From Takakia lepidozioides (taxonomy: Eukaryota; Plantae; Bryophyta), in NCBI GenBank assembly GCA_030704615.1, contig CM060732.1, positions 4,340,001-4,404,000 on the forward strand: DNA of 64,000 nucleotides, given 5' to 3'. Below, piece after piece: positions 4,068 through 34,229 of the stretch. The notes below the pieces were generated by a model, which worked only from the letters and a program-made list of their open reading frames with translations, did not search any database and had not been told where the DNA came from. The translations under genes and the position numbers were made by a program. How positions within the stretch are numbered: position 1 is the first letter of the stretch; each line of letters starts with the position of its first letter.

Positions 4068-4089
4068 TAGTGGTAAAATAACTTGACAA

Positions 4090-4278: not shown

Positions 4279-4299
4279 GATATTGGACCTAAGGAGATT

Positions 4300-6030: not shown

Positions 6031-6039
6031 TAAGCTTGT

Positions 6040-6500
6040 GCTCTAGGTGTGTATTTTCAGATTCATTTTTGTGAGCTTCATGAAGAAATGGAGCTTGTTT
6101 CTTCTTTCTTTATCACTTGTGGGTAGATGAGGAGCAGCCAAATAGTGGAGCTGCGAGGGGATGCATCGCAGCCTGGTAGCTCCAAGCTCATGAAGAGGTA
6201 TGAGTGAAGAGAGGGGGTTGGTCCCTCTTGTGTGCAAATCAATGCACTTGTGAAGCATATGCTGAGTTGGAGTTTCAATCTGAAACTCAGCAGTGTAAGG
6301 GCTCTTGGAGTGGCAAGAGCGGGGCTGGAAGGGCAGCAGCGAGGCGTCCTAGAGCTAGGGGATATGCATGAGAAGTGCATGTGCACCAAGTTTGTAAATG
6401 TGTGTATTTTCAGATTCGTTTTTGTGAGCTTCATGAAGAAATGGAGCTTGTTTCTTCTTTCTTTATCACTCGAGAGAGATCAGCTCGAGTCTATGAGTCT
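6040..6500 (+). repeat. Second copy of the 2.8-4.0 kb repeat family
   Basis: Reverse complement of 3150-3420 and 3790-3825, with an internal direct repeat (6047-6118 vs 6399-6470). Confidence 0.8.
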
Positions 6501-7501
6501 CGTTTTGTGGGACCTTGATAGGGAGGCTGGGCTTTGAAGAACAGCGGTTTTGAGCTAGCTGATCCGGTAGAAAAGTCGGAATTGCCTCCCTGTTGCATTT
6601 TAACAAAGGAGATTACTCCCCTACAGGTAATCTTTTCGGGTTTTCAGCCCAATTCTTAATTATGGGGGAGACCAGCCTGCAGGTAATTCCTTTGGACAGA
6701 ATGTTGTTGGGGCCTATATGTACCTCTATTTGCTCCATTTTTGAACCTTCAGTGAATGGCGTGGTTTCCTGAGGTGGTTCCAGGAATGGCTAGTGGACGT
6801 AAAGAGGCACTGGCAGACCCTGTGGAGGCTTGCATGGGGCCTTGGAGGCCAAGTTTCATGAGCTCATGGAGGGCGGTTTGAGGAGTGTCTACGGGATGCT
6901 CTCATGGTCATGCAAGTGAGAGAAGAGAGGAAAAAAAAAGGGTGTTGGGATGAGAGCGTACTGGGGATAGGCATTGCTTTAGTTTCTCTTCCTCGTAGTT
7001 TTCCACCTTCTCTGTAGGCGAGACGACCTTTCCATAGGTGGAGGCAAGAGTCAGTTCGGGTTTGGGCTGGGGTGTCCTTGCAGGAGCGACACTGTGGAGT
7101 TGTTTTTGGTGTGGGGGAGTTGTTGTTTTCATTCTTGTGTTTTGGATCCCCTCCACACCTGCATGCTTGATTGTGCGCCATGTTAGTTTTGTGTGGGCGC
7201 TTGATTTTATAGGTGGTTGACTCGGGCTTGATCGCCGATCCAACCCTAGAGCATGTTGTCGATGGTGAGGCTGGGTTGATGACTAGTCAGACCATCTTTG
7301 TTTCTCCTGTGGTGATGTTGGAGGTGATGACCAGCCAACCATGGGAGTGCCTGCGGTGGATGCAGGTGCAGGTGCAGGCTATGTTAGGAACCTAATATTC
7401 CAAACCATAAGCCGCATCAGGTTTCTCTATCCGGTTACCTTGTAAAGAGGGGGTTAGAGACAGGTTCATGACCGGTTGAGTGTCAGTTTGTCAACACGGA
7501 G

Positions 7502-10500: not shown

Positions 10501-11505
10501 ACGAGCGAGAGCGGGCTATGGGTTTTTCCACTGGGACCACGGCGGTGCCTTCTCTTTCTGAGGCATCACGTCATCAGGTGTTGGGGCAAGCGATGGATCT
10601 CAATTGCTTGACCTGGATTATCAGCTTGGCTATGGCTGAGCAACGTAGAGTGCGGAGTGCACTTCCCTTGACGGTCTCTCTGCCTACCAAGACGATACAG
10701 GCAGTGAGTGGGGGCGAGCCGGTGAGGACCATGGGGTGCAGACATCCATGGCACACGTGGGAGCTGCTCGAGGTCAGAGGGAGTTGGCAGCCAAGGCGGC
10801 TATGATGGATGAGGTTGAGGAGGTCCTCAAGGATGAATGATGGGGCAGGATGAGGCCTTGTCATTGACTGAGCAGGCAGGGAGTACTACTCAAGAGGTTG
10901 CGGCATAGCAACCACGGGACGTGTCCTCTACCTCTAGGTCTGCTGGATTTAAGGTTGCAGTTACGGAGGACAATTGGGAGCCTAACATTGGACCCATTGT
11001 CACTGGAGGAGAGAGACGATGTTTACGGCGGTTCTTGAGGGCTTACAGGAATTGCTTTGCCTTCAGTTTGAAGGATTTGGGAGCACTGAAGGGTCAGGAG
11101 ATTCATATTGAGTTGGCCACGGACACGCCAATCTTTCGGAGACCCTATAGATACAGTGTCATGGAGAGGTCTTTGATTCAGATGAGGACTCATGATCTCT
11201 GGGAGGCTGGTTTGGTGGAGCTCTCTGGTGGAGAGTATGCTTCAGCCACGGTGATGCCAGCCAAGAAGGATGTCTATGGCAATTGGACGGAGAGACGTAT
11301 GTGCGGTGATTACCTGTAAATCATCAAACCAAATTCGATAAGTATGCCATGCCCACACCAGAGGATATCTTTGATGCCATTGGGCATGCCAAGGTCTTTA
11401 GCACTTTGGACTTGCGGTCTGGATATCACCAGTTGCCGATCAAGGAGGCAGACAAGCAGAAGACGACATTCTGGGGGATCAATGAGCACGGGAAGGATTG
11501 CCTAT
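7502..11505 (+). mobile_element. Ty3/Gypsy retrotransposon (gag-PR-DNMT-RT), 3'-truncated and degenerate
   Basis: Gag has an in-frame TAG at 8507 and knuckles CWTCGGPHVKKDC and CGHCGKYGHGEAQC. Protease RVLLDSGAQ (~9715). RT IFRRPYRY...RRMCGDY and KVFSTLDLRSGYHQL, truncated at ~11505. Confidence 0.9.
10045..10650 (+). pseudogene. C5-cytosine DNA methyltransferase domain (motifs VI-X, DNMT3-like) inside Gypsy pol
   Basis: Frame 1 gives YILENVP (ENV at 10090-10098) and LLDAAAVGSRAHRPR. After a 1-bp frameshift, frame 3 gives WWTNL, LPTL, EPNANERERAMGF (motif IX) and VLGQAMDL (motif X). Motifs I-IV are missing, apparently deleted at ~10030. Confidence 0.85.
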
Positions 11506-14500
11506 ATCCACAAAACAGGATGCAACTTATGGGCTGTAAATGCTAACCGCCGAATATAAAGAAAACGCCGCAACCTCCTTCAAAAACCCTTACGCACACA
11601 CCTCGTGCTTGAAGCCTTGGAGTGATCAATCTCCCTCTTGCACCGTTCGTGGACCTATGCTAGAGACAACTAGATTGATAGCCCAAACGTTGCATAGAGG
11701 TGCGGAATTCATCCACGAACGTTCTCATCCAACAAGGTCATGCAGGATGATAACCCACAAACTTCATCCATATAAATCCACCAACAGATTTCATCAAGGG
11801 GCTTAGCCTAAAACACACCTAGGCTACTAACCCTTAAGTGCATCAAAAAGGAAAAATAAAAAAACAGGGCACAAGAATTTGCACCACATATGTGGTGTGG
11901 CTCCCGTTTTAAGTGACAGCGTCCCTGCGGTCTTTCTGCTGACTTGGATGTGCTTGTATTGCCTCATCTGCACATGGGTCAAGACATCCCTCCTCACCAG
12001 TCTGGATCGAATCAGATTCCATGTCCGTTGGCATTGATTGTGCTACTTCTATACCCTCACTGGTTGACAATTGCATCAGATACTTTTAGGCCTGGATCCG
12101 CCCCAAGTTGTCCCAGATTACGTGGAGGGACAAGAGAAAAACTATCCCTGCACTGCATGGATACTCGATGCTTCATGATGGTGAGACAGAGGCCTTCATC
12201 CCACTCGTGGCTTGGCAGCTCTTCCAGGGCTGATCTATCCCTCTGTGTAGAGTTTCCAGTACCCATTTTACCACACCTCCACATTCGGAACCCTTCCTCA
12301 CATGCTTGATGCCAAGGTCCTCACATGTCAAGGAGAACTCTCCTACCCAGTCTATGTCATCACTTGTCAATATGACCTCAGGGAGGCCATACAGAATTAT
12401 GATCTTTTTCTCCAAAAAACAAGCCGCTACATCAGATGTTCTATCTGTCACTGGGCTAATTTCCACCTTCCAATTGTATGGGTCCAGGGCTACAAGCATA
12501 CTTGCTGCCCTTCCTAGTTTCAAAAAAAGGAGCAAAGCTGATGGTGATGTGGTGGAACACGCTTACACTGCCACTGGTGCAGGATGAAGAATGTTCTGAT
12601 GCTTCCAAATCCTCTTTAGCGGGTAGATGCCTTGTTGGCAACACTGAATCAGCCTTGCAGTCATGGTGATGTTTCTATGCATGGTTACAGTACAAACACT
12701 CCTCGGTCTCCATGCTGACTACTAGTAGCTCATTACGTAGTTTTGAGACTGTATTTGGGGCAGCCTCACACCTGCCCACTATTGCATGCCCTACACCTTT
12801 TTCAGGTGTGTCACTTTCTGCCATCATTGACCATGCGCTCGTGTGCTCAGGGCTCTGTTCTCTCATCAGTTCTTGTTCCCTTGCCGCATCATGCACACCT
12901 TTAACATCCCCAATCGATGGCTCATGCTGATCAGTATCTGCTTCGTCCTCCCCTTTTTGGCACCTTTCCTTCTCGGTTGCCCTTGATTTCCTGACCCTAG
13001 CCAATTCTTCCTGGGATGTATGTCCAGATACCCTCTGTTCCTGTGGCATTTTTCCAATTGTGAGATTTCCAACTGTTTGCACGAGACCTTGCCTTTGTGT
13101 CCCATGCCCATTTCACAATGCCAGCACAACTCTTCAACACATGGCTTTGGCGGTATGATCATTTCGGCATTGTCAGTTTCATCCCTGGTGTGCTCATCAA
13201 CCGCATCCTTTCCCTTGTGTGCAGCACTTGCTGCATTCAAGCCCGATTCTTCTTTCACAGAGACTGAGTCTACTAGTGCCGTGATCTCCTACTCCTCTTT
13301 TGCTTCAGGCATTGTCCTTTCGTTCTGAACAACGTTGATTGATAGTAGGTATTGGCAATCCCTAATGCGGCCAGACTTACCTCCTCTTTTGACTGATGGC
13401 TGCCCAAGACAAGGCCTTCAACGCACATACTGGAAACACTCTCATTACTTGGTAACCATTTCAATATATTGGATCCAATCCTGGGATCCCAGATGTCTCT
13501 CTTGGCACTCAAACTCCTATCCTCACTCGTCATTTTTCCCTTGACATCTCTCACTGGGCTATGAAAACACTCACTGAACCCTTCTGTATCCATTGACTCC
13601 CAGACCTCACTTGGTCCTCTCATTTTCTCTCCCCTTGGATTGTAAATGGTATCCCAATCATGATAGGCTGATCCCTCCTGACTCCCATACAACTCATCTG
13701 AAGAATCTACCAGCACATTTCTATCACATACTGTTCCCTCATCCCTGGAAGCCTCATGTTCCATGCTGTCAACTATTTCTTCCAGGTAACATATAGACCT
13801 TCTCTCACCCATCACATATTTTCTCTCAATCTCACCAGGTCTATCCCAAGTCCCCTTTCCTACAAACTGAAAGGAGAAATTTTCCAACCCATTGGCTCGT
13901 GTGGTAATATCCATCCAAATGGGTCCAGCTTTGTGGAACCTCTATGGAGAGTAGATATATACTTGGGTCACTCTCATTTAGCTCTACTGGCAGAATATGC
14001 ACAATGCTATTTATCTCCAATTCCTCAGATTCTTGGGCTGCCCCCACAGGGTATCTACTCAAAGCATCGACGTTAGAGTGCTTGGAACCAGCCCTATGAA
14101 CTATCTTGAAATCAAAGTCTTGTAACATCATTATTCATCTCCCTCTCCTACCATAGGCGTCACTCATCGTGGCGAACCACTCAAGTGGTTTGTGATCCGT
14201 TCTGATAATGAAGTGGGTGCCATACAGGTACTGCCGAAAATGAATGACACCCCACACTAGGGCATACCATTCACCCTCCATGGGGTGATACTTCTTTTGG
14301 GCCTCGGACAATGCCTTACTGGCATATGCAATCACTTGCTCCCTTTGCTGATTCTTGTGAGATAGAATGGCCCCAACAGCCTTCCGAGACCAGTCCACAT
14401 CAAGAATAAAAGGTTTTGAAAAATTAGGACGAGCAAGCACTGGGGCAGTCAACAGATGCAATCTCAATGACTCAAAAGCATTATGAGCATCAACATTCCA

Positions 14501-15238
14501 CTTAAAGACAACATCCTTCATGGTGAGATAGAAAAGGGGCACACAAATGATGGAAAATCCCTCAACATATATCCTATAGTACCCACAGATCCCTACAAAC
14601 ACCCTCACACCAGTGGCATTCTTGGGCACAGGATAGTGCTGGATAGCAGCGATTTTGTTTGGGTCAATTTCAAGCTAGCACCCTCAAGCCTTTCCAACAC
14701 CTTCTCTAGGTGTTGAAGATGCAATTCCCAAGACTCACTATGAACATTGACATCATCAACAAACACCTTTGCACACTCCTTGATCTCAGTGGCTAGAATG
14801 GTGTTCATAGCTCTCTGAAAAGTAGCAGTGGCATTTTTCAAACCAAAAGGCTTCACCAACCATTCATACAAACCCCTCTTATTGATTACGGTGGTTTTCT
14901 TGATATCCCTAGGGTCCATCTTTATCTGCCAGAAACCACTCTGTAGATCCAAAGCTGAGAACCACTCAGCCTTGCCTAATTGTTCAAGGCATTGGGTAAG
15001 AGTCTCGCCTGGTCAGATTGATGACAGACCTATAGAAATATTCTTGAGCCATCCTTCTTTGGAGGCATGGTGACTGGACATGAAAATTCAGACTTACTCT
15101 CACGCTTCTTCTCCAAAGCAATCAATGATTCTATCTGCTTCTGCACCTCATTCTCTTCCCACTCTGAAAGTCTGTTGGGATAACTTTTGCATGGAGGAAA
15201 GCCTTGCGTGTCGACGACATGTTCTACAACGGAGCAGA

Positions 15239-16342
15239 GAGAGAAGACTCCGACCGAGGCCGGTGTAAGTAAGAGCCACTTCGCCTTGCGGCTACTGCCC
15301 CTTTTCAGGGGTGGGCCCTATGTAAAAATAACCGGTGTCCAGGGGACACCAAGTAGCCAGCTGGGGGGGGGTGGAAGCCCATGGGTGCCCGCCGAGTATC
15401 CAAATATATGTATCTAGGAGGCAAGAGCAGGGTTTGATTCAAGTTGTCGTTTGTTGGTGATGATAGCAGTGAGAGAACGGAGGGTCGTGAGGTGTATGGC
15501 TTTGAAGCATTTATGGATGGAGATGATCAGAAGATTAAAGTTATTTTTAAGTTCCGAGATGCTGGCCTTGTGGATGCCCCCTCTGGTGCCGGCAGTGATG
15601 ACAGTGAGGGGGCCTGTGGCCCATCCCCTCCGGCGGATAGCAAGAATGAGTGGTGCATATTTTTGGCGTTTTTTGAGGATGGAGGAGCTGGGGAAGCGGT
15701 CATTGCAAAATGTGAATTCTAAGAAGTGTATGGTAATGGCGGGGGGCAGAAGCATGTTACAGTGGCTCACTTTTGTCAGTCTACTCTAATCTACTCTCAT
15801 TTTTCATCTTCAAAACACAACAGCTTTGTTTGGAAACCAATTTTTGGGTGATCTCAAATTGAGTTGACAACAAAAATAAATTGCAACACCTAATTTGAAG
15901 TTCCTATGAAAAAAGATATAAATGAAAGTAGACAAGTTTAGACTGGACAAATTTTTTGCCAAGTGAGCCACTGTAGCATGCTTCTGCCCCCGGGGGACGG
16001 GGCAGAGGGCGGTGGGGCGTTGATGGGGAGCCCCTGGACTATGAGGATATCCGGACAGAGGCGGGAAGGGCATGTACATGATGTGTGGGGGCGACATATA
16101 CAGGGGAGTAGCCACGTAGGTACCGTGTGGTTTTGGGGCGACCTTGGTAGGTGCCCGCATTGATGAGTGAGAACCATCTGGTTTCATTACGTCGTTGTAG
16201 GAGTTTGTGGATGTGCCATACAGCGTGGTTGTGTCGTGCAATATGAAGTCCATGAATGACTGGGTGGGGGCATTGGTTAAGAAGGAGGAGCCAGGTATCA
16301 CGTGTGGCGTGGATGTGAGAGCACAGAGGGCAGTTTGGTGAG
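15239..16342 (-). mobile_element. 5'-truncated non-LTR retrotransposon 3' end (CCHC zinc finger + restriction-like endonuclease), Dualen/RandI-like
   Basis: 14-bp TSD TACAACGGAGCAGA at 15225-15238 and 16343-16356. Removing the insert restores the host RT (SVVEHVVDTQGFPP). It encodes CPLC...DTW...C.HP..HGLHIARHN, PDILIVQG and FLEFTFCND...KKRQKYAPL...GW...AGTRG, and ends in a CT-rich tail. Confidence 0.88.
15742..15991. mobile_element. MITE (250 bp) inserted in the RLE domain
   Basis: 31-bp TIRs GGGGGCAGAAGCATGYTACAGTGGCTCACTT with one mismatch and an AT-rich core. The TSD is ambiguous because of the G-run. Confidence 0.85.
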
Positions 16343-16783
16343 TACAACGGAGCAGAACCACAGGGCAGCCTTAGATAGGGCAAAACAGTGTTGCTTCTTT
16401 CTGAGTAATCTCTTAAGTCTTGCCGGGTGCTGCCGTATTCCCCGAAGGCTCCCCTATGACACTGCCATTCTCAAAAGAATCTCTGCAGTGTGTCTGTGAG
16501 ACAATCAGTCTTCTTGTCCAGCGGATTAACGTAGAATGCCTCATCAACATCCTCCCCACTCATAGGCTCGAGTGGTGTTTATCCCAGCTTCCGCAAGCCA
16601 ATCTCAATTTCCTTGGCAGTTTCCAAAGCCTCCTCTATATCAGTGAACCTCCTTCCCAGCATGGCCCTCATGATTTCAGGCCTAAGACCACTAATGAAAC
16701 GTTTTCGCTGCTCCAAGTCAGAAATTGCTCCCTTCATGAAGAGGCGAGTGAATCTATCATAATATGTTTGCACTCTCTGACGG

Positions 16784-17502
16784 GGGGGGGGTGTTTGTCT
16801 ATGAGCACAAAAAAACATGAGCAGAACCCCAAAAAAGAATATTTTTCGCATATTTCTGCGAATATTTCCAGGTTTCCGACCATCGGAACCTGTTTTTTGA
16901 CCATCCGAACCTGATTTTCAGTGTTACAAGTGCACGATTTTCCCTCATCATAGAACAATCAAGTTAGGTGCGGATGTAAAGCTAGGTTCGGGATTCCCCA
17001 TATTTGGACGTTGGTACCTTCTTTTTGAGAAGTCGGCACAGACTTCCGGCCGCCTACTGTCTTTTTTCTTCTTTTCTTTTTTTTCTTTTTTTCTTCTTGT
17101 TTTGAGAAGTCGACAGAGACTTCCGGCTGCCTATTTTCCAGATTATTGTGATTATTATTATTATTATTATTATTGAAGTCGGCACAGACTTCCGGCTTCC
17201 CAATTTTCAGTTTTTTTTAATATAAAATATTTTTTGAAAAGTCGGCACATATATATATATATATATTATTTTATTTTTGAGAAGTCGGCACAAACTTCCG
17301 GCTGTACATTTTCCGTTTGGCCCGCGCGGGTATAGGTGGTCACCTTCTATTTAGGAATATAACTTTGGTCCTTTAGCTTTGCTCATATCCCGAGCCTATT
17401 CCGAACCTGGAATCTGGCTTCGGGTTTGCTTCGGTGTAGGTTCGAAAACTCTGCTCATGGCTCATGGCTCGTCTGCTCATGGCTCATGGAAAATACAGAC
17501 CC
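16784..17502. mobile_element. Non-autonomous Mutator-like element with 9-bp TSD
   Basis: CTCTGACGG at 16775-16783 and 17503-17511. Imperfect GGG...ATGAGC termini. It splits gag (IKQE|RQRVQTYY) and contains five GAAGTCGGCACAGACTTCCGGC-like units. Confidence 0.75.
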
Positions 17503-18002
17503 CTCTGACGGGGGGGTTTCTTGCTTAATGGAATCCAATCTCATTTTGATCTTGGCCAGATCAACCATGCCAAACTTGACAATGATTGTTGCCTGAAAAT
17601 CCTCCCAATTGTCTGGCCTAGGGTTTTGTTTCCTAAACCCTTCATCAGCCCTAGACTTCAAATTAAGCCTAGCAACCTTAAACATCTTGTCATTAGTTAC
17701 TCACGAACTTCACCTGCCATCTGAATCCTCTCAATCCAGTCATTCACATCCTCACTCTCCCTTCCTGAGAAAGGGAGTTCTATACAGGGATCAAGGTGTG
17801 ATCCTTACCAGCCATAAAACCCTACATTGATGCTTCCGCTGCAACAACGACATACCCCTGACATATGCAATCGTTTATCTCATCAACATAAGGCGACCCG
17901 CGCCTGTTTCTTTTTCTCTTTTGCTGCACGACATCAGATGTCGGGTATGAATGTGAAGGGTAAGAAGGTTAGTAACTAGGGCTTTTGTGTAGGCCCCTTT
18001 TT

Positions 18003-18014
18003 TGGTATCAGAGC
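18003..18014 (+). promoter_or_regulatory. Primer-binding site complementary to initiator tRNA-Met
   Basis: Exact TGGTATCAGAGC. No clear LTR-terminal CA lies just upstream. Confidence 0.5.
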
Positions 18015-18059
18015 AGTTCGATACTTGTGGTTTGCAATGCTGTGTGTTTTGATGTTTCA

Positions 18060-18330
18060 TTGTGTTCCGGAACACATGACCGGAAGATTGAGGCAGAGAA
18101 TAATTGCAATTCATGGAAAACCAAAAGACAACAAGTGTCGACAGATTGCGGAGCTAGCAGAGCTCACTGATGACCAGGCAGCATGGCATAGGATGATGGA
18201 GGAAGAGATCACACTAATTCATGAGCTTGAAAGCACATTGCGGGACAATGTAGGTTCAGCACAGAAGGCACAGCAGCGAGCCTATGCAGCAAGGCATTCA
18301 AAGGGAAATGAGCTTACCATTTTACAAGAA
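18060..18330 (+). pseudogene. Gypsy integrase C-terminal fragment
   Basis: LRDNVGSAQKAQQRAYAARH resembles the N..AQ..QK..Y..R helix that follows the integrase core. Confidence 0.55.
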
Positions 18331-19739
18331 AGAGCTGGAAAACAGTGGAGTGAAGTATGGTGGGATTCATGGCGGGACTCAAAACTCATATTCCTGAGTG
18401 ACAAAACGTCAGCTGGAGTAAGCGTTGACTGGAGGGCCAGCCAGCTAAAAACGGGAGTGCTTACATCTGTAGGGCAAAGGCATGTGACCTAGGGAAATGC
18501 GGGAGAAAGCTAGAGCACGGAGGGTTATGGGGGGCTCAAGGATGCAATGAAGTCGCGATTTTTCATTGAGGAGAAGTGGATGAAATCGCCAATTTTTCAT
18601 TCAAACATGGATTGAGTACTAGATGGATGACGGGTTGGTAGAGGGATGAAATGTGAGAGAAAGATCGATTTATCATTGCTGGGATGAAATCACGGAAATA
18701 AAGGAGATGCAACAGTAATTTAGGAACGGGGTGGCCATATTAAATATTAACAAGTGACATGCAGCTAAAAGGGTGGTTGAGAAACAAAACACGTAGATAT
18801 AGTATGTTTTTAGAAGTTGGCCCGTGGCACAAAGGGGGCTAAGACCCGGTGACCGCCATACTTGATGTCCAAAAGCTGTAGGATCTTAAATATTGTTGGC
18901 TTGCTACTAAATAATCACGTGAAGGAGGCGGCGGGATAAGATGGAGTTAGGGATTAGCACAAGTATAAGATTAGTGGAGACTGGATGGTCATCTGGCTCC
19001 TTTTGTTCTAGTTTTCGGCTATCAAGTAAAGTACTGAGTTCACCGTGATGAAGTGTGGGGGCATATGAATCATTTTAGATTTGAAGTAGGAGGCGATGGT
19101 CATGTTTAGCTAGCATCAGAATGAGTGACAAGGATCATTGAGCATAGGATCCAACATGCGAGTTGTATTCACGTAGAATGAAGCTTGAGCGACTCCACTA
19201 ACATGTCGGGAAGATTAGAAATAGAGGTTGATCACGGGAAGTAGAGGGCAAGTCGTCCACCAGATTGCCTGCATAGCCATGTAAGATCGAGTTGTTAGCA
19301 TTGAAGCAAAGCATGATCGCACCTGAAGTATGAAGTAAGCAGCACTGCAGTGCCATATGCGAACAGTGAATGATGCAAATACAAAGGCCGAAGAAGTAAG
19401 AGGAATGATCAAAAGAATGCGACCACCTGCCCGGGATGATAAGAAAGACAATTAGCATGTTACTTCAAAACAAGAAGTCAAATAATCCAGGCTTTCTCTT
19501 CCGCTGCAGTCTGGGATAGATGGAGTACTAACGGGATGTGTGGCATAGGTGTTAGGACCCTCCATTTTTGCTTACAACACCACCTTTGGTTACAGAAGGT
19601 GGAGACTGATATGGAAAACTAAATGTATTTCTGTGATCTACAGCCTTAACTTCTGAAAGTATAAACCTACAGAAGACATTGAATGTTTAAAAACAAGCAC
19701 CACACATGTTATCAAATGATGTAGACAAGCCAACACACC

Positions 19740-20450
19740 AAAAGGTTGACTACAAAATTCTGGGGACACCACTTTCATTCGCCGAAGGTGGGCACAAAAA
19801 ACAGAAGGCATGGAGGTCCACAACATAATATGGGGGAGACGACCTTCTTTTGTCGAAGGTAGAAAAAGAATAAAACGTCTAAGAACTAATTTGGGGACAC
19901 CACCTTTGTCCGAAGAAGGTGGGCATAAAAATGAAAGATCCAAATTTTTTTTGGAGGAGACGACCTCGTCCGATGAAGGTGAGCATAGAAAACAAAGATC
20001 CAATTTTTTTTTGGAGGAGACCACCTTTGTTCAACGAAGGTGAGGAATAAAAGTCAAAGATTCAAAAACGTTTTAGTGGAAACTACCTTCATTCAACGAA
20101 AATGGGCATAGAAATCAAGGATCAAAGACAATTTATGTGGTAGACCACCTTTATTTGCCGAAAATGGGTAGAAAAATCCGAAATATTGCTTTGTGGATAC
20201 CATTTTAATCTGCCAAATGTGGGCATAGAGATCAGTAGGTCTAAGTCAATTTTGGGGCAGACCACCTTCGGCAAATGAGGACGTTGAAAATGTCTTCAAG
20301 AATTTATCATGGACACCACATCTGGTGAACGAATGTACATTTCTGGTGATACAAATAGACACATGGTGAGAATTCCAACCTTCTGTCAATGAAGGTGTTT
20401 TATTTTTCTTCCTTGTACCTTCGTCCGTTCGAAGGTAATTTTTCTTGGGC
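19740..20450. repeat. Degenerate ~62-bp tandem repeat with CCTTC...GAAGG dyad core
   Basis: Recurring GGAGAC(G/C)ACCT(T)...CGAAGGTG(G/A)GCATA unit, roughly ten copies by eye. Confidence 0.7.
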
Positions 20451-20579
20451 AACTTCAAATATTCTTGGTGACCTTTGTTGATCTTCGTCACTGATGGATT
20501 TGTGCTGATAACTGACAGAATATGAGCTCTTCTGCTCATAAGGAATCTATACCCCGTCACAAAGCGTCTATCGAGCTCA

Positions 20580-22850
20580 TCTGAATTTGAGTGTTTGTCG
20601 GATTTGTGCGTCAATGGTAGTTTTGGTTAGCCAGAAATGATTTGAGAGTTTATGGTGCAATACATTTGATTGAGTCCATTTTTGGATGTGTACTTTGGTG
20701 TGGCTGATGGAGGCTACAGCTTGTTTATTTGCTTCTCTAGTGAGAGTGGTCAGAAGGTTTCGGACTGGTCTGGGTACAGGGGGGTCCGGGACGGGGTGTA
20801 TCAACCAGAAGGGGTGGGTATGGGCGATGTGGATAGGGTCGGGTTGTGGGTTCGATTGTGGGTTGAGAGGCGCCGAGTTGAGCGAGTAGGTCTGCTTCCT
20901 CATTACCATGAATGCCAGTGTGCGAGCGGACTTTAAGTAAATGGACTGGATGGTTTTTGGAAATGGCGGCAATGAGGTTGCGGTCGGGGTGATAATGATG
21001 GGAAGAAGGGCGGGAGATGTGGTTTCGAATAAGAAATAGAGAGGTGAGGCTATCAGTGAAGATATAGTGGGGGGGGGGGGGGGGGGTCAAGTAGAGAGAG
21101 AGCGTCGTGGATGGCCATGAGCTCAGCCCTTAGAATTATAGCAGGGCCAAGGAGCCGGTGGGCAACACCCCGACCGCTGCCAGCGTGATAAATTCCATAT
21201 CCTGCATTAGGTTTGGTGAGGGATCCATCAGTGTAGTGTGAGTTTGCCAGGGGATACTTGAGGGCGGTGTTTTGCTGATATATTGAGGGGATTGGGGGAA
21301 GGGGTGTTAATGTTGGTATTACCTGGGGGGGGGTGCGGCTGTGCCATGCCCCAGGCTTTGTTTGTTTTGATCCAGGGAAATGTGGTGGTTGTGTGGGTGT
21401 GGAGGGGTGTAGCTGGGTAATGGATGGTGGCCTTCATTTTATGAGTTATGGTTAGCAACTGTTCTAGCTGGTGGAAAAAATGTGTCGGTATGTTTGTATG
21501 AATGGGGTTTTGGACGTGTAGAATCAGAGTTAGGGTAGGTTCTTTCCTTTTGAGGTACTTGGGAAGAGGGGGGGTATGAACATACTTAATCTGATTTGGG
21601 TCAATTGTGGCGAGTAGATTGACCCCTTCTGGGAGTTGTAGGAGAGGGTGGGGGGTGCTAGGTGTGTTTTGCTGTGTGAGGATGAGGATTGTGGAGGCAA
21701 GAGGAGAGGAGTGTGCTGCGAATATTGCCCATTAAAGAGCTTCATAAGCGAGGGGGCCATAGGGGGGGTGGGCAAAGCCCCTACCCTCCCAGGTATGCTG
21801 GGTAGCATTGCCGGTGGCTCCAAAGAGACAATCCTTGTGGTGCGGGTTGGAAAATGTGTGCAAGTCCATAGGACATATTAGTGGATTGGAGTAATATGAG
21901 TGAGTAAGCTGGAATGTATTGATAAGTAAGGCGAGAATATCTTGGGGTATGGCATGGTGTGCGCAGGCCATTTCCAGTCGGGTGAGGGATCGTGGCTTCT
22001 TGGGGGGGGTGTCTTTGAGGTATCGGTCTATGAGCCAATATAATTCGGTCGTGAAATCTTGTTTTGGGGGTTGTAAAGATTGTGGATATGAGTTTGCAGC
22101 AGAATACTTCTCCCACAACCATGTTAATCTATTATTAGGAATGACTCCAATGAAGCGGCCGCGTTGAGCATAAATATTGAAAAGGCGAGGGCCCATGCCA
22201 ATTAGTGGTTGGTCATGCTTGACATCTTTGTCGGGGTTACACTCAGTTATGCAGATGTGCACGTTAGGGGCAGAGATCAGCTGGTGAATGTATCAACTAT
22301 CTGTAGGTTGGGCGGGGTGGTGTGTTGTTGGTGAATGTGTGTTAAGTAGTCCGTGTTAGTATGTTTATGGAAGGAGGTGAGAAGGGCAAGATTGTGTTCG
22401 GGGTCGCAATCATCATGTGGGCCAAATAGGTCATCTTCTATCTGCCATGTATTGTCTTCTGAGGAGTAACCAGCCCATTATAGTGGTAGTATGTGTCAAT
22501 ACATGTGGCACCGAAGACATCGATTGACGTTTGGGTTTGACTCCTAGTATGGCTTCAATGATGTATGCATTATTATTGTCATCATTGTGTGGAGAAGGTG
22601 GGGAGGACGCTATGGTGAGTGGACGTTGGGAGTGGGTAGGGGAGCCTTGCGTATTAGATGAGGGGTTGAATGGCAGATGTAGGTTGTGGTCAGGTTTGGT
22701 ATGTTGCGTGTTAGGTAGATGAGAGGGGGGGTCGGGTTCTGTGACTGTGGGGGTATTGGCGGCATATGCCGTTTTAAGTGTTTGGTAGATGGAGGCAGTA
22801 GGGGGAGCGGGTCTTGAACTGTATGGGGATAGTAGAGACATCATGAAAAC
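20580..22850 (-). mobile_element. Internal fragment of a Dualen/RandI-like LINE: chromodomain, PCIF1-like methyltransferase, RNase H
   Basis: Chromodomain YIIEAIL...WAGYSSEDNTWQIEDDL (~22425-22565, frameshifted). MTase-like FQLTHSYYSNPL...DCLFGATG...GRGFAHPPY (HPPY at 21759-21770). RNase H YTDGS, RAELMAI, YIFTDS, KVRSHTGIHGNEEAD. Confidence 0.8.
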
Positions 22851-23984
22851 ATAGACTTCTAGTTAATACCCTCGAAAGAGGAGGAAAGAATACTAAGGTA
22901 CTAACCCAGGAGAGACCTGGACCATTTGTTTGTTTATGAGATCACGTGTGGGAAAGCTAGGGGTCAGGATAAGAGACCCTAGGGGGTATTTGTGAGATTT
23001 TCAGAAGGAAAAAAAGCCATGTATGTGATTGTTGGTAGCTTGTGTTGAGCTAAGAGGGTTGATTGAAGGCCCAAGGATCATTAGGAAGCTTTTTGGAAAG
23101 GGCCTAGGCCATTCAAAGAAGGCTAGGAGCCCAAAAGGGGAGGTTGAGATCATACCAGTAGAGGTAATTCTTGAGACTCCAAGAGAGTCATAGGAACTCT
23201 GGGGTGTTTGTGCAAGTAGATGCTTGCAAATTTAAGTTTGAGAGAAGGCCTAGGGTCCTCTAGGACCTTAGGGAAAGAATAGGCCCCTAAGAGGTGGGCT
23301 TCCATAGGCCATAGCACCTACCACCGATCATTTTGGACTGCTCCTAAGGTTGGAGACTCGAGGTTTCGAAGCGTTGAGGCACGTTCCCAGAGCGTTCCTA
23401 GGGGGTTCCCTTGGGCCCTTGGCGGTAATTTTTGGATCTTGGGAATCTGGAAGTGATTCCCCATCCAATGCTTATTCTTATTGTTTCTCTTATTATTCTC
23501 ATTTTCTAATGATTTTCATACTTGATTAAATCAGCTTATTTGGCCATTGAGCCCACAATTTATCCGGACCCCCTTAAAGTTAATTCCTCTTGCTTTGTAT
23601 GTTTTCATGGGAGCTAGAGTTGGAATCTAACACCATAGTTGCTTGAGGAGCTTAGATCCTAGCAAGTAGAACTCGAGCTTGCTAGTAGTAGAGAGCATTA
23701 TTTTGTGGGAGCTAGAGTTGGCTTCTAGCCCCACACCTCCTAGGCCTTGGAGCCATTTATAGTTTATAAAGAAGGATTTTCATATTACTAATAAAATAAT
23801 AAAATAATACTCATTAAAATAATGAGTAATAATAATAGTTTATTCAAATCTATTGGGCTCATTCATGAGGGTCCCATTTGATCGACGGTCATGATCGCCT
23901 CTCGCAATTGTTTAAAAAGTTTCATTTTATATTTTACTCCAGTTTATTGGGAAACTTGCTGACCAAGAAAGGAAAAATATGAGC

Positions 23985-25271: not shown

Positions 25272-26000
25272 GGTAGACATCGTCAACCACCTCCACTTTC
25301 ATCTCCTCCGCCACCAGTACCACCTCCACCTCCATCTCTACCTCTACGTGGCGCATGTGCCCCGGCCCGAACCCCTAGGAGGGGTCGGCTTCGCCCTAGG
25401 TTTTCTCCCCTTCGGTTTGTGCGGCCTGAGGATCCTAACATTCAACAGAAGCGCATATGAATATGTTACTGAGGACCGTTCAGCCTCGTTGTTGGGGGAA
25501 TCATCTTGACCCTCCTGTCCCCATCCGAGAGAATGTGGAGTTCGAGTATTGGGGGAGACGGTATGTTGTAAGAGCCGCTACTAATCCTGCTATGGGTCGG
25601 GGTTTATTCATGGTCAATGATATTGTGGTTCCTCGTGGGAGAGACAGCATGGTGGACTTGTTTCCCTACTACGGTCCATACTACACCATAGGGGAGTTCC
25701 GCACATTACGCCTCGAAGCCCCATACATTCTACCATACATTTTGTGTATCAACGGACAGGATGTACGTAGACGGGGGTTGTCTCCCATTGACATTAGATA
25801 TTGTGATGGTGACCCCGATGTCTTCGGCAATGTTGCTGGGTTGGTCAACAGTTCTTTTGGTCAGCCTAGGATAATCAATGTAGTATGGGATGAGCGAAGC
25901 GATAGGCATAAGATATTTTGTGGTCATACGATATACTGTGAGGGGATATGATGACATGTGCTAGTAGGACTATTAGGACTGGCACCCAATATCATGGTAT
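25272..26000 (+). pseudogene. SET-domain-like gene, last exon (upstream exon remnants from ~24290)
   Basis: Pro-rich linker, then MGRGLF...I...LFPYYG...YIL...DGDPDVFGNVAGLVNSS. After a frameshift it reads MTCASRTIRTGTQ. These match SET motifs GxG, GNxxRFINHS and AxRDIxxGEEL. Confidence 0.7.
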
Positions 26001-26709: not shown

Positions 26710-28445
26710 TCTGGACTGGAGGAAACGATAGTGCCACCATGCTAGCCAACTGACCATTGCTCCCTCGTCTAATTTCCTTACAGCACCTGACGTTGTCCAC
26801 CAAGCCCGTATACATTCAAACTGTGTCTCTACATCATCCAAGGTGGGAGCACGCTTCCACGCAAGACACATGGAACGGTGCTCCTCTCTGAAATCTGGCA
26901 CCACGAGCCTGGTTGTGTACTGCGACAAGCTCTGCAGAAAATGGAACCCACAAGATCTCTCCTCGCCTTCATCGGAACATTGGGGTCTTCCCCGTACACC
27001 CTTCGGATGGTAGCCCAATTTGCTTGTGCGATGTCCGCCATGAAACCACGGAAATTGGGCGGGGGCAATCCCGCCCTGGCCATCTGTTCGTTTATTCCCT
27101 GCCAAAGAAGCATCTCCGATTGTGTGTCCTCCCCTTTCATCTCACAAATAGCAATTGTCATTAGCATCCTGCAATGGGTGTCGTAGACATGTGCACCCAT
27201 TGTCACCCACTGGTGATTTGTAATTCGCTTGATATGGTCGAACATGACCCAATTGTTTGACAAGTCCCCACTTATCATCCGGTGGACCAGTTCCATGCCG
27301 CTGCCAGGCCCACATGTGGACATTTTGAATACGAAACAACGATCTGCCTCAGTCCCTTGTCCTAGAAACCTACTTCAATGAATGTAGTCATATCCACATC
27401 GTCGCTTCACCTCCAGAATGGAGTGCATATCCAAGCCTCACCCAATTCCTTTTTTGCAGGAGACAATGTGGTTTCGGACATTCGGTGAACAAACGTGGGA
27501 CACTGACTCCAACAATGCCTCCATTTCCTTCTCATCGAGAGGAACTCTGTCGGAGCCATCTTCGGACATATTTCTGGCCAATGCCATCTTATGGGCGGCC
27601 TGCAGCTGTATTTGTTTGGGTTTGCCACCGGGTCTCAACTTAACCTCCTCCTGAATGAGCTGCTCTGCCTTGTGGGCAGCCTCCCGCGAGTTCCCCCTCG
27701 CCAATTTGTGACAATGCACACCAACGTGTATGCAAGCTCGTGTGAGGTCAGGGAAACGGTGCAACACATAGAACTGCTTGGCATTACAAATAGACATGCA
27801 ATGTGGTGGTTCTTTGCAATGCGCACACTTAAATGTAGAGTTTGGAACATTTTCCTGTGCTTGAAATGGTTGATGAGTTGTGCCCGTCCAATCCGTCTTG
27901 TTCTTGTGACCTTTGGATTTAAAGTGGAAGCAAGTTGGGGAGAAACACCGTAGCGCGCCCGCACACACAACGTAGCGCACCCGCACACCATCGAGCATCT
28001 TCATGCTGGTGGTTTTGGTGACGCACCAAGGATGACCGTCATGTTTCCTATCCATATCTGTCAACATTCCGGACGCCCTCGAATAGTCCGTTCGAGGAGG
28101 GAACTCAAAGAAGATATTGCCGTCGACATCTGCGGGAAGGCATGTCACGGATTTAATTGCGAACTTGCTGTAGTCCAGCCCAGCCAGCTCCGAGCGGTGT
28201 CCCTCCATGTGAAGCCCTCGCAGAATTTCAAGAATGGATCGAGTTGCTGAGCTCGTGCTGGGAATATGACTCTCTCGTCCGCTGATGTCCATTGAGGACT
28301 TGCCTGATCTCCAGGATGATCTTGGAACTTCCATGACCTTGTTTGAGTCGGACAGGTTGTAAACAACCCGGTTCTCGCTCATCTTCATTGATGGGGTCGG
28401 CTCTGGATTAACTTCGTTGTGGAGTTCTCTCTTTGAGGTACCCAC
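26710..28445 (-). pseudogene. MULE-type transposase copy 1 (GCM/WRKY-like domain + DDE), divergent and 3'-truncated
   Basis: DRKHDGHPW...CAGALRC...C...CAHC...C...C...GVHCH, then VMFDHIKR, FMADIAQA and WLAWWHYRF. Homology stops before the catalytic E and SWIM. Confidence 0.85.
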
Positions 28446-28553
28446 TCTCTGATTCGCGGATTGCGGGACGGGCTTGCGCGGCTTTGGTGCCTCCGAATCG
28501 TTGATCTGCAGTATCCGCCTGCATGGAACACTGAAGAGGCCAGGGGTTTGGAA

Positions 28554-31500
28554 ATGACAGATGCCTATGTAAGCAAGGGACGCACAGAAATGGTGGATCC
28601 CTCCAAGACAGCAGAAACAGGCAGTAACACACCGGCTGCATCCTTACCGGTTACACCATCGCGGGTGGGAGCAGCCCCCGCAATTACCCATACGGTGGAG
28701 ACTGGGGGGGGGGGGATAGAACACCACAAAGACCACGGAATGTGGGAGGTGGAGGTGAAGACGGGGAGAGGGCAATAGAGACGGGGAGAGGGCATGAGGT
28801 GCTTCCGCCGGTGATTGACGAAGTTGAGAACGACGAGAGGGACCTTTCTGACCAGGATGACATCCTCCCGGAGATCCCCAGGCCCCAAACCCGGAGCATA
28901 CAGACTGGATTTGGTGGTCCTGGTGGGCTGCTGGAGAACCCCCCTGGAGCAGACGTCATGTTGGAGGCGGATATGAAGCTGGCCGCTACCAAGATGTTGG
29001 AGGCAACCCACAGCAACATTGGCAGGGTCCTGGGGGGCATGGTGTACCCGGAAAAACTTTGGATTCCTCTCTACCGCTTGGTATCATTGCACGTGGTGAG
29101 ACCTGCCCTCCCAGGCGATATCGACAAGCATAAATTCTCTTTCCGGGAGGGATATCGAATGGGGTCTGCTATGTTTTATGTTTCCATTGAGAACGACCAC
29201 GGAGCTTCTCGTGCCCACACTTCCGATGAGGTGGACAAATGGGGTCCCCATTGGCAAAGGTGAAATGAGGAGTTCGAGAGATTGATTGCTACTGATCCCC
29301 TTTTCCACCACTTGTCCGGAAAGATGTTTTACGTGTGGGACGGCAATCATCGCCTCTTGGCATGGATGAGGCACATAGCCCAAGCCCACCCCAACGACCT
29401 GGATTGGCATTACGCCGTGGAGTGTGTTGTGCTGAAGGTTGCGGGGCCCAAAGATTGCAATCTTCTCAAAGCTGCAATGGCAGACATCAACTCGTAAGTT
29501 ACAATGCCTCTTGCTTTGGAACTTTGAATTTGAAACACTCATTTCATTGCCAATCGTCATATTTGTTGCAAATTCTCATTTCAGTATTGTGTAATGGAAA
29601 TGTGGCATTGCAGGGTGACTGAGAATGCCTTCATTGCCACCAACTTGTCCCACATGCTCTTCCAAGTGAAGGATGTCGGGAAGCAGGGGGTGCAAGAGTT
29701 TGCCAATTCGCTCAGTACCGACCTACTGCGCAAGTCGGAGGCAAAGGCAGACAAAACCTGGTATAGGCTGAGCATGGACGCCATGGTGGACTACATATTT
29801 TGGGTACAGCTCCCAACTCTTTTGTTGACCTAATCTGTCTTTGCTCCCCCAATAGAAGAAAAAGTGTGGACCAGGATTTCTAATCTTATGTGCGCATTGT
29901 TGACAGACAAAAATTCAGCAAGATTTGGCACATGCACGAAGGTTCTACATGGAGTCAGAGGAGAAGAAACTAACCCTCCCGACACTGGAATCGTATCTGA
30001 AAGCTGTGGAGGCGAAGGCTCGCATCAAGTACAAGTCGCGGATGGTGAAGTACGTGGCCATTGCTGATCCCGCCCTTGGTGCCGACTTTCTGGTGGAGGT
30101 GGGGAAGCACTACTCTTGCGCTCTTAAGCCCACGATTACACTGGAGAAGCTGCATCGTCTAGCTACAGCCTCTGTGGATGCAACAGAGAAGGTTATACAT
30201 TCTTAACCAAATTCTCTTGTGACAACAATTCGTTTTCGTGGTGTCTTGCGCTTACTAATATGCAAGGTGGTTGGACAGACCTGGTGGCTCCAAATCTGGA
30301 ATGGGTCCCAGAGTACAAGGGACATGTGGAGCTTCCCCAAACCCGACAAACTGTCTGACCCCACATTCGACATGTGGATGAGCCGCATGACATGGTGGTT
30401 TCAGGTACTTTCCCATGCTTCATTTGGCACTTCTACTCTTGTATCTGGTGGATTTCTTGTATTTATTAAGGAATGCGGTGAGATGGAGAATCTCCACAGA
30501 TGACGACGAATGCGCAAGAGCAGCTTGACACCCAAGCACATCAGTTCAAGCTGGAGATTTCTGGGGAAGCAGAGAGCCTACGCGACTATGTGACGAGGTA
30601 CTTTCTGCTCTACAAAACCGACCTGTTCTTTCGAGAGATACCGCATGCCCGCCAGAGCCACGAGTTCACCGACTAGCAGAACGCGGACAAAGTGACAATG
30701 TGCCTTCTGTACAGGTAAATATGCGGTGCTCCTCTTTGATCTGTGGCCATTGTAGTCCCTGGAGTTCGTGGATATAAAACGGCTTGTGTGGGGCATGACA
30801 ATTGGTTGTGAAGAAATGGCGAAGTCCCCGGGGTGACTGCCCCCGAGACAGGGAAAATGGACCCAGAATGGCTAAGTCCAATGAGGTGCTCGCCACGACA
30901 CGGGAAAAATGGCGCCGAATTTGCAGTTTAAGTGCCGTCCACCCTGGGGACAGCCATTTCTTGGCCCTGGAACTCGAAATTCGGCGCCATTTTCTCCCAT
31001 TTTGGCCCAAAAATGGCTGTCCTAGAAGGGGCTGGCCCCCAACCTGGAAAAATGGCGCCGAATTTCCAGTATCGGTGCCAGCCACCCCAGGGACTTGGCC
31101 ATTTCTGGGGCCCGGAACTGGAAATTCGGCGCCATTTTCCCAGGTTGGGTCCGAAAGTGCCCAAGTCCCAGAAAGGGTGGCCCCCAACCTGGAAAAGTGG
31201 CACCGAATTTCCAGTATCGGTGCCAGCCACCCTCGGGACTTAGCCATTTTCGGGGAACGGAACTGGAAATTCGGCGCCATTTTTCCAGGCTGGGTCCGAA
31301 AGTGGCGAAGTCCCAGAAAGGGCTGGGCCCCAACCTTGGAAAATGGCGCCGAATTTCCAGTTTCCCCAGGGACTTAGCCATTTCTGGGGCCCGAAAGTGG
31401 AAATTCGGCGCCATTTTTCTAGGTTGGGCCCCAAAACGCCTAAGTCCCAGAATGGGCTCCCTCGCCCTCGGGAAAAATGGTGCCGAATTACCACTTTCAA

Positions 31501-32420
31501 TGCACGGCACCCCGGGGAGCCAAGACCATCGGGCCCACCCCGCATAGAAATTCGGCGCCAATTTTGCAGTTTCTTGACGAAACATTAACCTCATTCCCAT
31601 GACCCGATTCTCTGTGGATTTCTTAAATGCAGGTACTGCAAGTTCTCCCTGTTGGAGAAAGGTCATCTGTCCTTTGAGCCGCCATTCTTCCTCGCATGGA
31701 GGAACCCTGGAGCTGATTCCATGTACGCTGACGTTATCGTGAAGGATTGGCATCTGGAGCATTTGCGCGATTGCCCTTGGTATGTGGACCTTCCGCCCGG
31801 AGGGCTCGACGCCTCCGAGTTTCAATTGAAGCTGGATGCTGAGGCCCGACGAAACCGGGCTCCGCTGCCTCCACTGGGTCCAAAGGAGGCGAAAGCGCTT
31901 GCCAAGTCCAGGAAAACGGCAGAGCTTGCTCAGGCAAGTATTCAGGAGAAGTTGAATGAGAAGAATAAAGGACAGAAGAAAAGGACACGGAATCAGGGGA
32001 CTGCAGTAACCCCCAAAAAACAGAAAACCACCGGGGCACGAGAGGAGGCGCAGGAGGAGCCCGAAGGGAGTGACTTTGACGACGACTTTGTGCAAGGTTT
32101 TGCGACTGTTGCTGCTGCTACCAAATCACCGGTAGTCCGGGTTCCCAAGTAAGGTTGGACTGGGACTGGCTCTGCCAAGAAGTTGGCATTTGAGTGCAAG
32201 CCTACATGGCGGTATTCGGTGGTGTCGTTTCCCCACAGGCCAAAGTTAGAACCCCCAGTTCAATCATCCAATGCGTCAATAAGAGCTTCCTTGACGCTCT
32301 GGCTGCCAGGGCGAAGAAGGTGGCACACAGCAAGTCTCTGGAGGAGCTGAAGGGGAAAGCGAAGAAGAGGGCTGCCGCTGCAGAGCCTAAAGACACCCCT
32401 GGTTTGGAAGCCATGATGGA
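28554..32420 (+). pseudogene. ParB/Sulfiredoxin-fold accessory gene copy 1, multi-exon
   Basis: IPLYRLVSLHVVRP...GYRMGSAMFYVS...FYVWDGNHRLLAW...AMADIN. GT-AG introns include 29494-29613 and 30715-31632. Lesions are a poly-G frameshift at ~28710 and TGA at 29261. The C-terminal tail is basic/acidic. Confidence 0.8.
30810..31570. repeat. Intronic array of alternating inverted GAAATTCGGCGCCATTTT / AAAATGGCGCCGAATTTC units
   Basis: About ten copies in alternating orientation with GGACTTAGCCA sub-repeats, entirely within intron 30715-31632. Confidence 0.9.
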
Positions 32421-33235: not shown

Positions 33236-34229
33236 TCTAAGTCTACATCCGTAAGTCTGCGCAAAAATTAAGGGTACCCCTCAGAACCCGTAAAACTGTC
33301 TAAGTCCCAGATAGCCCTCTAACATTACCCCTCCCCCTCTCAAAAAGTCGTGTCCTCACGGTTTACTGTTTAGGATCAGCAAACCTCTGTGAATGAGCAC
33401 CCTTCTGTCGGTGAGAGTCCCGTGGAGGGCTCTGTGTGCGAGCTTGAGCCCTGTCGCTGGCTGATGGAGATGACTGTCCACCAAATACAATTGACTGCCC
33501 TTATTTTGGCTGATAAGGAGGTAACTTCTCAGGCATAGGAGATCCCCGTCGTTTCTTCTCCGCCATCTGTATTGCATAGTCCTCAGCCATGTCAAAAGGT
33601 TCCTCCATAGAACCCAACGACGCAATGGCGTGAGCGTTGTGCGTGAGCGCGCGAGCGTACGCTCACACAGGAGTGACGTGGCGCGAGCGTATGCTCACGC
33701 CAGCTGACGTGGCGTGAGCGTCATGTCGGCATGCTGATGTGGCGGTAAATGATGACGTGGCACTGTCCGTCATCTGCCACATCAGCATTAACATGCGCCG
33801 CCTATAACCGTGGATGGTCCTATGACCGTGGAATTAATGCAGGGAATCTTGCCTAAATAGAATCAAGACGAACGTTGAGGCCTACAATTGCAGCATCCAA
33901 CATTGTGCAATTACAAATGCTTGTTTCACTTTTACAATTACGAGGACGAAAAAATATCCTCACAAAGTGTGCGCCATAAAGGCTGCCACGGGAAGACCTT
34001 CCTCCCTCCTCAAATAACAATGAGAGTTAGGATCATTTTCAAAAGATGATTGTAGTGCATAGCGACAGCAAGACATGTAGACTTCGAACGGTGCAATGAC
34101 AAATGTGCACTACCTAAAAGTTGTCACTCAGAGCTCACTCCGTATAGTTGGAGGCCATATCATTGCACCGCCGACGAATTGATGTGAATTACACATTTCA
34201 AATCATGGTCGTCCACATACCACATTGCA

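Follow-up and report, generated by a model that had tools for sequence, protein, structure and literature searches.

A predicted PCIF1-fold adenine methyltransferase-like domain in a LINE of Dualen-type layout

Organization of the element in the window

The window analysed here is a stretch of 64,000 nucleotides (assembly GCA_030704615.1, contig CM060732.1, positions 4,340,001 to 4,404,000 of the forward strand). Between 22850 and 20580, its minus strand carries the middle of a 5'-truncated, decayed retrotransposon of the kind that has no long terminal repeats (non-LTR), a long interspersed nuclear element (LINE) that belongs to a multi-copy family. Six-frame translation places a chromodomain, a methyltransferase (MTase) domain with the predicted fold of the cap enzyme PCIF1/CAPAM, and an RNase H on this strand in that order, spread over several frames (Table 1). 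The initial annotation had proposed a LINE polyprotein with these three domains; the trio and its order were recovered, but not as one open frame, the copy being broken by the stop at 21734-21732 and by at least four frameshifts between 22568 and 20850. It had also confined the element to 20580-22850 and remarked on the missing reverse transcriptase (RT). The absence of RT agrees with a truncation near 22850, but the element extends to about 15236, beyond an insertion of unrelated repeats.

Table 1. Features of the LINE and of its second copy in the window (APE, apurinic/apyrimidinic endonuclease-like domain; RLE, restriction-like endonuclease; MITE, miniature inverted-repeat transposable element; UTR, untranslated region)
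Feature	Position	Strand	Remarks
5' truncation point (~22850) and low-complexity linker	22570-22850	-	Linker sits after RT in relatives; APE and RT missing here
Chromodomain	22410-22568	-	Y/W/Y cage residues present; spread over three frames; broken by two one-base deletions
Connector, chromodomain to MTase	22293-22409	-	Aligns with P0001; frameshift near 22316 that other copies lack
PCIF1/CAPAM-fold N6-adenine methyltransferase-like domain (predicted)	21432-22292	-	SYYSNPL 21899-21879 (position of PCIF1 ECFASPLN); HPPY 21770-21759; stop 21734-21732
RNase H, D-E-D-D	20850-21262	-	Two frames; reading frame shifts within a homopolymer stretch near 21070-21087
Segment joining RNase H to the zinc knuckle	20580-20849	-	Matches P0167 residues 412-498; ends at the insertion
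Insertion of unrelated repeats, ~4.3 kb, splitting the LINE	16345-20579	.	Foreign to the LINE
CCHC-type zinc knuckle and RHN motif	16135-16344	-	Histidine ligand replaced in the window copy
RLE, LCPDIL ... LEFT ... KRQKY	15414-16134	-	PD...E...K type; stop 15416-15414
MITE-like insert inside the RLE, 250 bp	15742-15991	.	Terminal inverted repeats of ~30 bp
3' UTR and likely 3' terminus	15236-15413	-	Last 86 bases (15321-15236) greatly exceed the coding part in abundance and finish in a CT microsatellite
Second, shorter decayed copy	54240-54825	+	Linker, chromodomain in one frame with one stop, MTase start

In the chromodomain, the cage residues Y (22565), W (22477) and Y (22468) noted initially are present, but the frames that hold them are separated by the two one-base deletions, as judged against the second copy (54415-54810). 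The C-terminal half gives a weak Pfam Chromo match (E 0.022) and agrees at 46% with the relative P0001, which itself passes the Chromo cut-off (E 4.3e-9). The chromodomain may read histone methylation, as first inferred; its aromatic cage is incomplete elsewhere: the second copy lacks the first aromatic residue, and several members of the window's clade lack the third. A frameshift common to both window copies of the chromodomain was considered and dismissed after nucleotide alignment. The RNase H, described at first as complete, does retain four acidic residues (D 21229, E 21124, D 21054 and D 20892) that align with those of intact relatives, but it is split by a frameshift into halves matching Pfam RNase H at E 0.015 and 2.3e-5.

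Other copies were judged from contigs of public sequencing runs, in which summed depth is not equal to copy number. In the DNA run X2, the summed contig depth drops from 1776 (22516-22849) to 66 (22850-23183); it amounts to 4,700-13,000 over 20512-22515 and 3,600-6,800 over 15502-16503, and to 66-98 just upstream of 22850. The contrast across 22850 points to a multi-copy family cut at about this position, and a tblastn comparison of the window with full-length relatives gave no match upstream of it. The stop at 21734-21732 is specific to the window copy, being missing from all 15 other covering contigs of X2, and an indel at 22316 is recorded with three contigs of X2 and one of X5. The second copy shows 74% identity to the first over 194 nt. 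A target-site duplication of the element was sought, and only a 9-base match was found, which may be due to chance.

Predicted fold of the methyltransferase-like domain

The frame 22292-21735, in which the peptides quoted initially lie, matches the Pfam family PF12237 (PCIF1) with E 3.2e-5, its score of 24 bits falling short of the gathering threshold of 31.1 bits, and the MTase reading continues beyond the in-frame stop to about 21432. An AlphaFold2 model of 22292-21432, built with X at the stop and a 54-row alignment, reached a mean pLDDT (predicted local distance difference test) of 88.5. With this model, all six Foldseek matches at E ≤ 0.001 were human or zebrafish PCIF1/CAPAM (5e-10 to 2e-8), and VIA-align superposed it on residues 421-673 of zebrafish PCIF1 with Z 17.4 and a root-mean-square deviation of 3.8 Å over 228 residues, the next fold reaching Z 9.3. 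The sequence profile of the MTase matched zebrafish PCIF1 in the PDB (E 4.7e-10), and the ExFASPLN, DxxFG and NPPF positions of PCIF1 align with the domain. PF12237 matches 48 of the 54 aligned relatives, and the Dam family PF05869 matches one (E 0.055). Among viral models, the best named matches are giant-virus PCIF1-like proteins (E 1.5e-8), ahead of phage Dam enzymes. The domain is therefore predicted to adopt the Group-2 Rossmann N6-adenine MTase fold of PCIF1 type, and the PCIF1 resemblance first noticed in the motifs held up in sequence and model searches alike.

Three further searches or models yielded nothing usable. The window MTase found nothing in a word-indexed search among longer proteins, the single MTase open reading frame had no match in the PDB by phmmer, and P0100, a member with an NPEY motif modelled from its single sequence, reached a pLDDT of only 35.6 and gave no usable NPEY model.

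Architecture of the related elements

Among 1.84 billion representatives (clustered at 50% identity), a search found 186 relatives at E ≤ 0.001 and listed 150 of them. Full-length relatives span 2,235-3,684 residues, with single open frames of over 2,000 residues, and are laid out as APE, RT, chromo-like region, MTase, RNase H, CCHC knuckle and RLE, which is the Dualen/RandI layout. The combination of APE and RLE is the stated hallmark of Dualen/RandI (PMC5029228), and Dualen, with an active member in Chlamydomonas, is presented as unique among LINE clades in having endonucleases of both types (PMC9977147). The tentative assignment to Dualen/RandI in the initial annotation is supported by relatives carrying both an APE and an R2-like RLE.

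By Pfam, APE, RT, PF12237 and RNase H follow one another in P0171/P0226 and P0176/P0224, and RT, PF12237 and RNase H share one frame in P0152 and P0177, as they do in P0171 and P0176. P0159 contains APE, RT, a PHD finger and PF12237, its RNase H being scored in the cluster-mate P0146. The APE lies upstream of the RT in P0159, P0171, P0176, P0224 and P0226. In all 14 proteins (of 156 examined) whose sequence extends at least 150 residues beyond the MTase, the next domain is RNase H, at a gap of 25-195 residues, so the MTase segment is a regular part of the family. Even the degenerate MTase of P0172 is detected by the family's own profile (E 3e-34).

The RTs of the relatives are of non-LTR type, with profile matches to R2 (E 3e-70) and L1 (E 2e-42). 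Seven of them split from three other LINE RTs with a support of 100, in a tree that contains no named Dualen reference, and the RT and MTase trees of six full-length elements show one topology. In the window's own clade, the locus L001 begins in the RT-thumb region and extends over MTase and RNase H as far as the zinc knuckle, so that the APE of this clade is inferred. A metagenome scan with P0167 gave no loci, a second scan gave nine short loci of 1.1-3.2 kb, none extending to the RT core, and viral contigs scanned with P0150 and with the 3'-terminal motif gave nothing. Taken together, the element is almost certainly a Dualen-type LINE in which a PCIF1-fold domain is a regular component.

The reader module before the MTase varies among the relatives. 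P0159 has its PHD finger within the chromo-like region, P0177 and P0178 show weak chromo matches and apparent tandem units, and P0173 gives weak Tudor matches in the region where the MTase would sit. P0224 contains a weak C48 peptidase match (E 0.062). The N-termini of P0159 and P0172 may be Josephin-like, a resemblance for which Pfam gave no match. Pfam scans of the full-length relatives found no WW domain, and no tyrosine recombinase or integrase.

Active site and selection

A FastTree phylogeny was built from the 54 of 160 MTase domain rows that cover both motifs (106 fragments dropped); it was midpoint-rooted and contains no PCIF1 outgroups. The 54 domains comprise the window's clade (31 members, support 1.0) and 23 others. 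Outside the window's clade, NPEY occurs in 13 of 23 domains at a mean identity of 36%, accompanied by NHW in 12 of the 13 and by a near-constant ExFASPLN. Such conservation suggests a working active site, and on these sequence grounds the NPEY members may well be catalytically active, which we hold to be fairly probable.

Within the window's clade, 25 of 31 members have H as first motif residue, an aromatic fourth residue is present in three of 31, and the glutamate of ExFASPLN occurs in none of 31 vs 19 of 23 outside; the aspartate before FG is kept in 27 of 31. Catalysis by enzymes of this group needs a polar first residue and a stacking aromatic residue, [DNSH]PP[YFW] (PMC4738411), a pattern that HPPY of the window copy fits but that only three of the 31 clade members show. 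The first H of HPPY, taken initially as possible decay or inactivity, is accordingly a lineage trait and not decay of the window copy. Among host copies, a non-aromatic fourth residue accounts for depths of 236/964, 314/1006 and 120/256 in three runs of one sample.

Purifying selection acts on the domain. The dN/dS ratio is 0.08-0.33 in 15 of 21 pairs, the other six being saturated, and synonymous changes make up 14 of the 30 variants listed for the host copies vs 26% expected (p 0.013, a rough estimate). The aromatic residue of the motif has been lost despite this selection, which makes a pseudo-enzyme likely: the window's clade is probably for the most part non-catalytic, with the fold kept for binding and catalysis relaxed.

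Candidate ligand and role of the domain

[quoted passage not shown] The aligned range of PCIF1 begins at residue 421; 25 model residues precede it, with the chromodomain upstream, so that Arg239 and Arg269 of the helical domain are left without a counterpart. The column mapped to Glu563, by inference from the profile alignment, holds E in four of 31 clade members and in none of the 23 others. Because this cap-contact region is absent, methylation of the element's own RNA cap, as first proposed, is unlikely. Human PCIF1 also methylates RNA/DNA hybrids and single-stranded DNA, and its N553A mutant is dead (PMC9178792). The MTase lies beside RNase H, whose substrate is the RNA:cDNA hybrid, and a hybrid or single strand rather than the cap would therefore be the likeliest ligand, a view that we hold to be reasonably probable.

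The explanation that we favour, with only modest confidence, is a LINE of Dualen layout whose PCIF1-fold domain grips the element's own RNA:cDNA hybrid, methylating adenines in the NPEY relatives and serving as a non-catalytic binding module in the window's lineage. During target-primed reverse transcription, the hybrid would exit the RT thumb, pass the MTase-fold domain and reach RNase H, while the chromodomain would likely tether the complex to chromatin. NPEY members would place N6-methyladenosine (m6A) on RNA or new cDNA with no cap needed, and in the window's lineage the MTase-fold domain would only bind the hybrid. A bolder version is more tentative. It supposes that Dualens have long carried, unnoticed, an active adenine methyltransferase derived from PCIF1, which would write m6A on the RNA:cDNA intermediate of the element itself during target-primed reverse transcription. 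The enzyme would be kept active where hosts mark open chromatin with N6-methyladenine in DNA (6mA), and would have been reduced to a binding module in a lineage whose hosts lost the mark. If true, a non-LTR element would for the first time be seen to encode an N6-adenine writer, and a cap enzyme would have been converted to use in retrotransposition. Relaxed catalysis would fit a land-plant host, given that Streptophyta are reported to be without abundant 6mA.

Several points weigh against the favoured explanation. All relatives were found with MTase-containing queries, and their counts give no frequency of the domain among Dualens; P0173, with APE, RT, RNase H and the C-terminal region, shows no MTase match even at full sensitivity, and the domain is thus not universal. 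The inner nodes of the RT and MTase trees are weak (42-62), and the APE and RT core of the window's own clade were not recovered, L001 holding only the RT thumb. Since many of the 31 clade sequences are pieces of decayed copies, decay may explain some of the variation in the motif. Exact [DNSH]PP[YFW] is found in none of the 23 domains outside the clade, NPEY departing at the third position, and [DNSH]Px[YFW] in 14 of them. Among host copies, the codons for H and the first P have no listed variant at 20% or above, and tyrosine predominates at the fourth position, the non-aromatic state reaching only about a quarter to half of the depth; since HPPY fits the canonical motif and its H and P are stable among host copies, the window subfamily may be active. 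PCIF1 itself is about 600-fold less efficient on an internal adenosine than on a cap analog (PMC8931429), and retrotransposon Dam domains gave no 6mA in E. coli (bioRxiv 10.64898/2026.05.21.726589).

Activity in the window's subfamily too, with H in place of N, would let the enzyme mark cDNA or template RNA and so help insertions to escape silencing. The canonical fit of HPPY, the HPPF of a cellular Monosiga PCIF1 (Iyer supplement), the stable HPP with its tyrosine majority, the retained aspartate before FG and the purifying selection all speak for it. However, the aromatic residue survives in so few clade members, the ExFASPLN glutamate is absent from all of them, and the non-aromatic state takes so large a share of host depth that we consider this unlikely.

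An MTase dead in all members, acting as a structural or RNA-binding scaffold as proposed for the methylases of DIRS elements, is somewhat less likely still. The DIRS1 MTases are held to be likely inactive binders (Iyer 2016), the motif is altered in several separate branches (HPDH, HPTF, HPPH, QCPL and FPNK), and both the departure of NPEY from the PP form and the E. coli result are in keeping with inactivity. Against it, the 13 NPEY sequences, at 36% identity, keep N, P, E and Y together with the NHW and FASPLN loops, and in four full-length NPEY elements the MTase identity of distant pairs (32-38%) approaches that of the RT (39-46%).

Methylation of the cap-adjacent adenosine of the element's own transcript, as by PCIF1, could stabilise or disguise that transcript. 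PCIF1 is the closest fold by a wide margin, and giant-virus PCIF1-like proteins lead the viral structural matches; the helical part with Arg239 and Arg269 is nevertheless absent, E is rare or missing at the mapped Glu563 column, no scan gave a WW match and the domain adjoins RNase H, which leaves this proposal very improbable. Chance capture or a chimera, that is, a host PCIF1 fragment amid unrelated retroelement pieces in this or a few copies, might be suggested by a broken copy within a nest of repeats, but it is refuted by the single-frame relatives of over 2,000 residues, together with the 186 relatives, the constant RNase H order and the purifying selection, and can practically be dismissed.

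Comparison with known systems

The relatives share with published Dualen/RandI elements one long frame that encodes APE, RT, RNase H, CCHC knuckle and RLE (PMC5029228, PMC9977147 and PMC8226300), and the PHD finger of P0159 and the weak C48 match of P0224 are accessory kinds named for Dualen. In contrast, the published domain lists, in the portions available, contain no PCIF1-like MTase or chromodomain. Dualen-1_GCr carries a SET methyltransferase (PMC5029228), and a figure legend of 2023 gives RT, RNH, APE, RLE, JCP and PHD across all families drawn. The hosts named for Dualen/RandI in these texts are green algae and cryptophytes, whereas the host of the window may be a land plant, and a Dualen-type element in such a host would be noteworthy in itself.

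PCIF1/CAPAM (PDB 6IRV-6IS0) shares the predicted fold with the domain over 228 residues, including the end of the helical domain. However, the window domain has no WW domain and lacks most of the helical domain with its cap contacts, the retroelement motif is NPEY or HPxx, and the domain is embedded in a retrotransposon polyprotein. Many protist PCIF1 proteins in the Iyer supplement also have no WW domain. Iyer 2016 assigned the methylases of DIRS1 to the PCIF1 clade, and the PCIF1 list of that supplement (parts 22-23) contains neither RT-fused nor land-plant PCIF1.

DIRS and LTR elements carrying DAM domains (EpiLTRs) likewise encode an N6-adenine MTase of the broad PCIF1/DIRS clade, sometimes with a chromodomain (PMC4738411 and bioRxiv 10.64898/2026.05.21.726589), and the EpiLTR preprint also proposes action on the RNA-DNA intermediate. 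These are Dam-like domains in DIRS and Ty3/Gypsy elements, whereas the window domain is of PF12237 type in a non-LTR element. The preprint extends Dam-like domains to LTR elements and reports them absent from Streptophyta; its available text mentions neither PCIF1, CAPAM, Dualen nor RandI. DAM is named only in DIRS and Gypsy elements in the accessible part of PMC6338049. SymbioLINE-Dnmt (PMC5890265) is also a LINE encoding its own nucleic-acid methyltransferase, which differs in being a cytosine-C5 DNMT in a separate upstream open reading frame, as opposed to an adenine-N6 fold inside the RT polyprotein.

A full-text literature search, covering neither the original Dualen paper nor the Repbase entries, found no PCIF1-like domain described in a LINE. 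The PCIF1-fold domain in this known but obscure LINE clade is real, regular and apparently undescribed, and an unannotated enzyme-fold domain of about 270 residues enlarges the known repertoire of LINE proteins. With it, the question of why retroelements carry adenine methylases extends to a third class of retrotransposons and to a PCIF1-like rather than Dam-like lineage. Furthermore, the NPEY and HPxx members of one family form a natural test pair, with the domain adjoining RNase H, where the RNA:DNA hybrid passes.

Distal part of the element and other features of the window

The protein P0167 is colinear with the window down to its residue 498 (20580) and picks up again at residue 519 (16329), and one contig each joins 16245-20579 and 16304-20668, skipping 4,333 and 4,363 bases. 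This colinearity and the bridging contigs from other copies identify a single element split by an insertion, at whose borders a search found no target-site duplication. Within the insertion lie a tandem repeat of ~60 bp (19756-20268) and a gag-like frame (16579-16917, minus strand), and 18613-18994 is deep in RNA-labelled contigs. Beyond it, 16344-15414 is colinear with P0167 and P0027 over the CCHC knuckle and the RLE, and the C-terminal part of R2 proteins is recovered by the family profile (domain E 1.1e-6).

At the 3' end, the depth rises to 61,690 in the bin 15168-15501, with 126 loose ends at 15236, while 15321 is joined to five different places at 15434-15487. The segment 15236-15321 (minus strand) is about ten times deeper than the coding part and occurs in RNA-labelled contigs with unrelated flanks. 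The excess depth of these last 86 bases and the CT repeat would be as expected of many short 3' ends, and the segment may be an RT recognition signal or a partner resembling a short interspersed nuclear element. It had no credible Rfam match, and its fold is not significant (z -1.39); a possible drawing contains two hairpins with GNRA caps and an AGUA/GAA loop that may resemble a loop-E motif.

Elsewhere in the window, a second, unrelated LINE with APE and RT matches lies at 44058-46997 (plus strand), its RT grouping away from the MTase-bearing family. Decayed Gypsy-like pieces occupy 7472-15012, with a gag match at 7472-8506 (plus strand) and RT and RNase H matches at 14138-15012 (minus strand). 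Two copies of an element of at least 3 kb, 90-95% alike, are situated at 33876-36814 and 57031-60038 and contain long frames (449 aa at 34417-35763). These long frames had no Pfam match, and 34417-35763 had no usable Atlas match; the element is possibly a DNA transposon, and the frames at 26832-28643 look related to it. A frame of 170 residues at 25439-25948 (plus strand), with no Pfam match, may resemble the start of a SET-type domain. In addition, satellite-like arrays are found at 61325-64000 (units of ~52 bp with internal palindromes), 49785-53705 (a family of 70-260 bp) and 30669-31547 (a 145-bp tandem).

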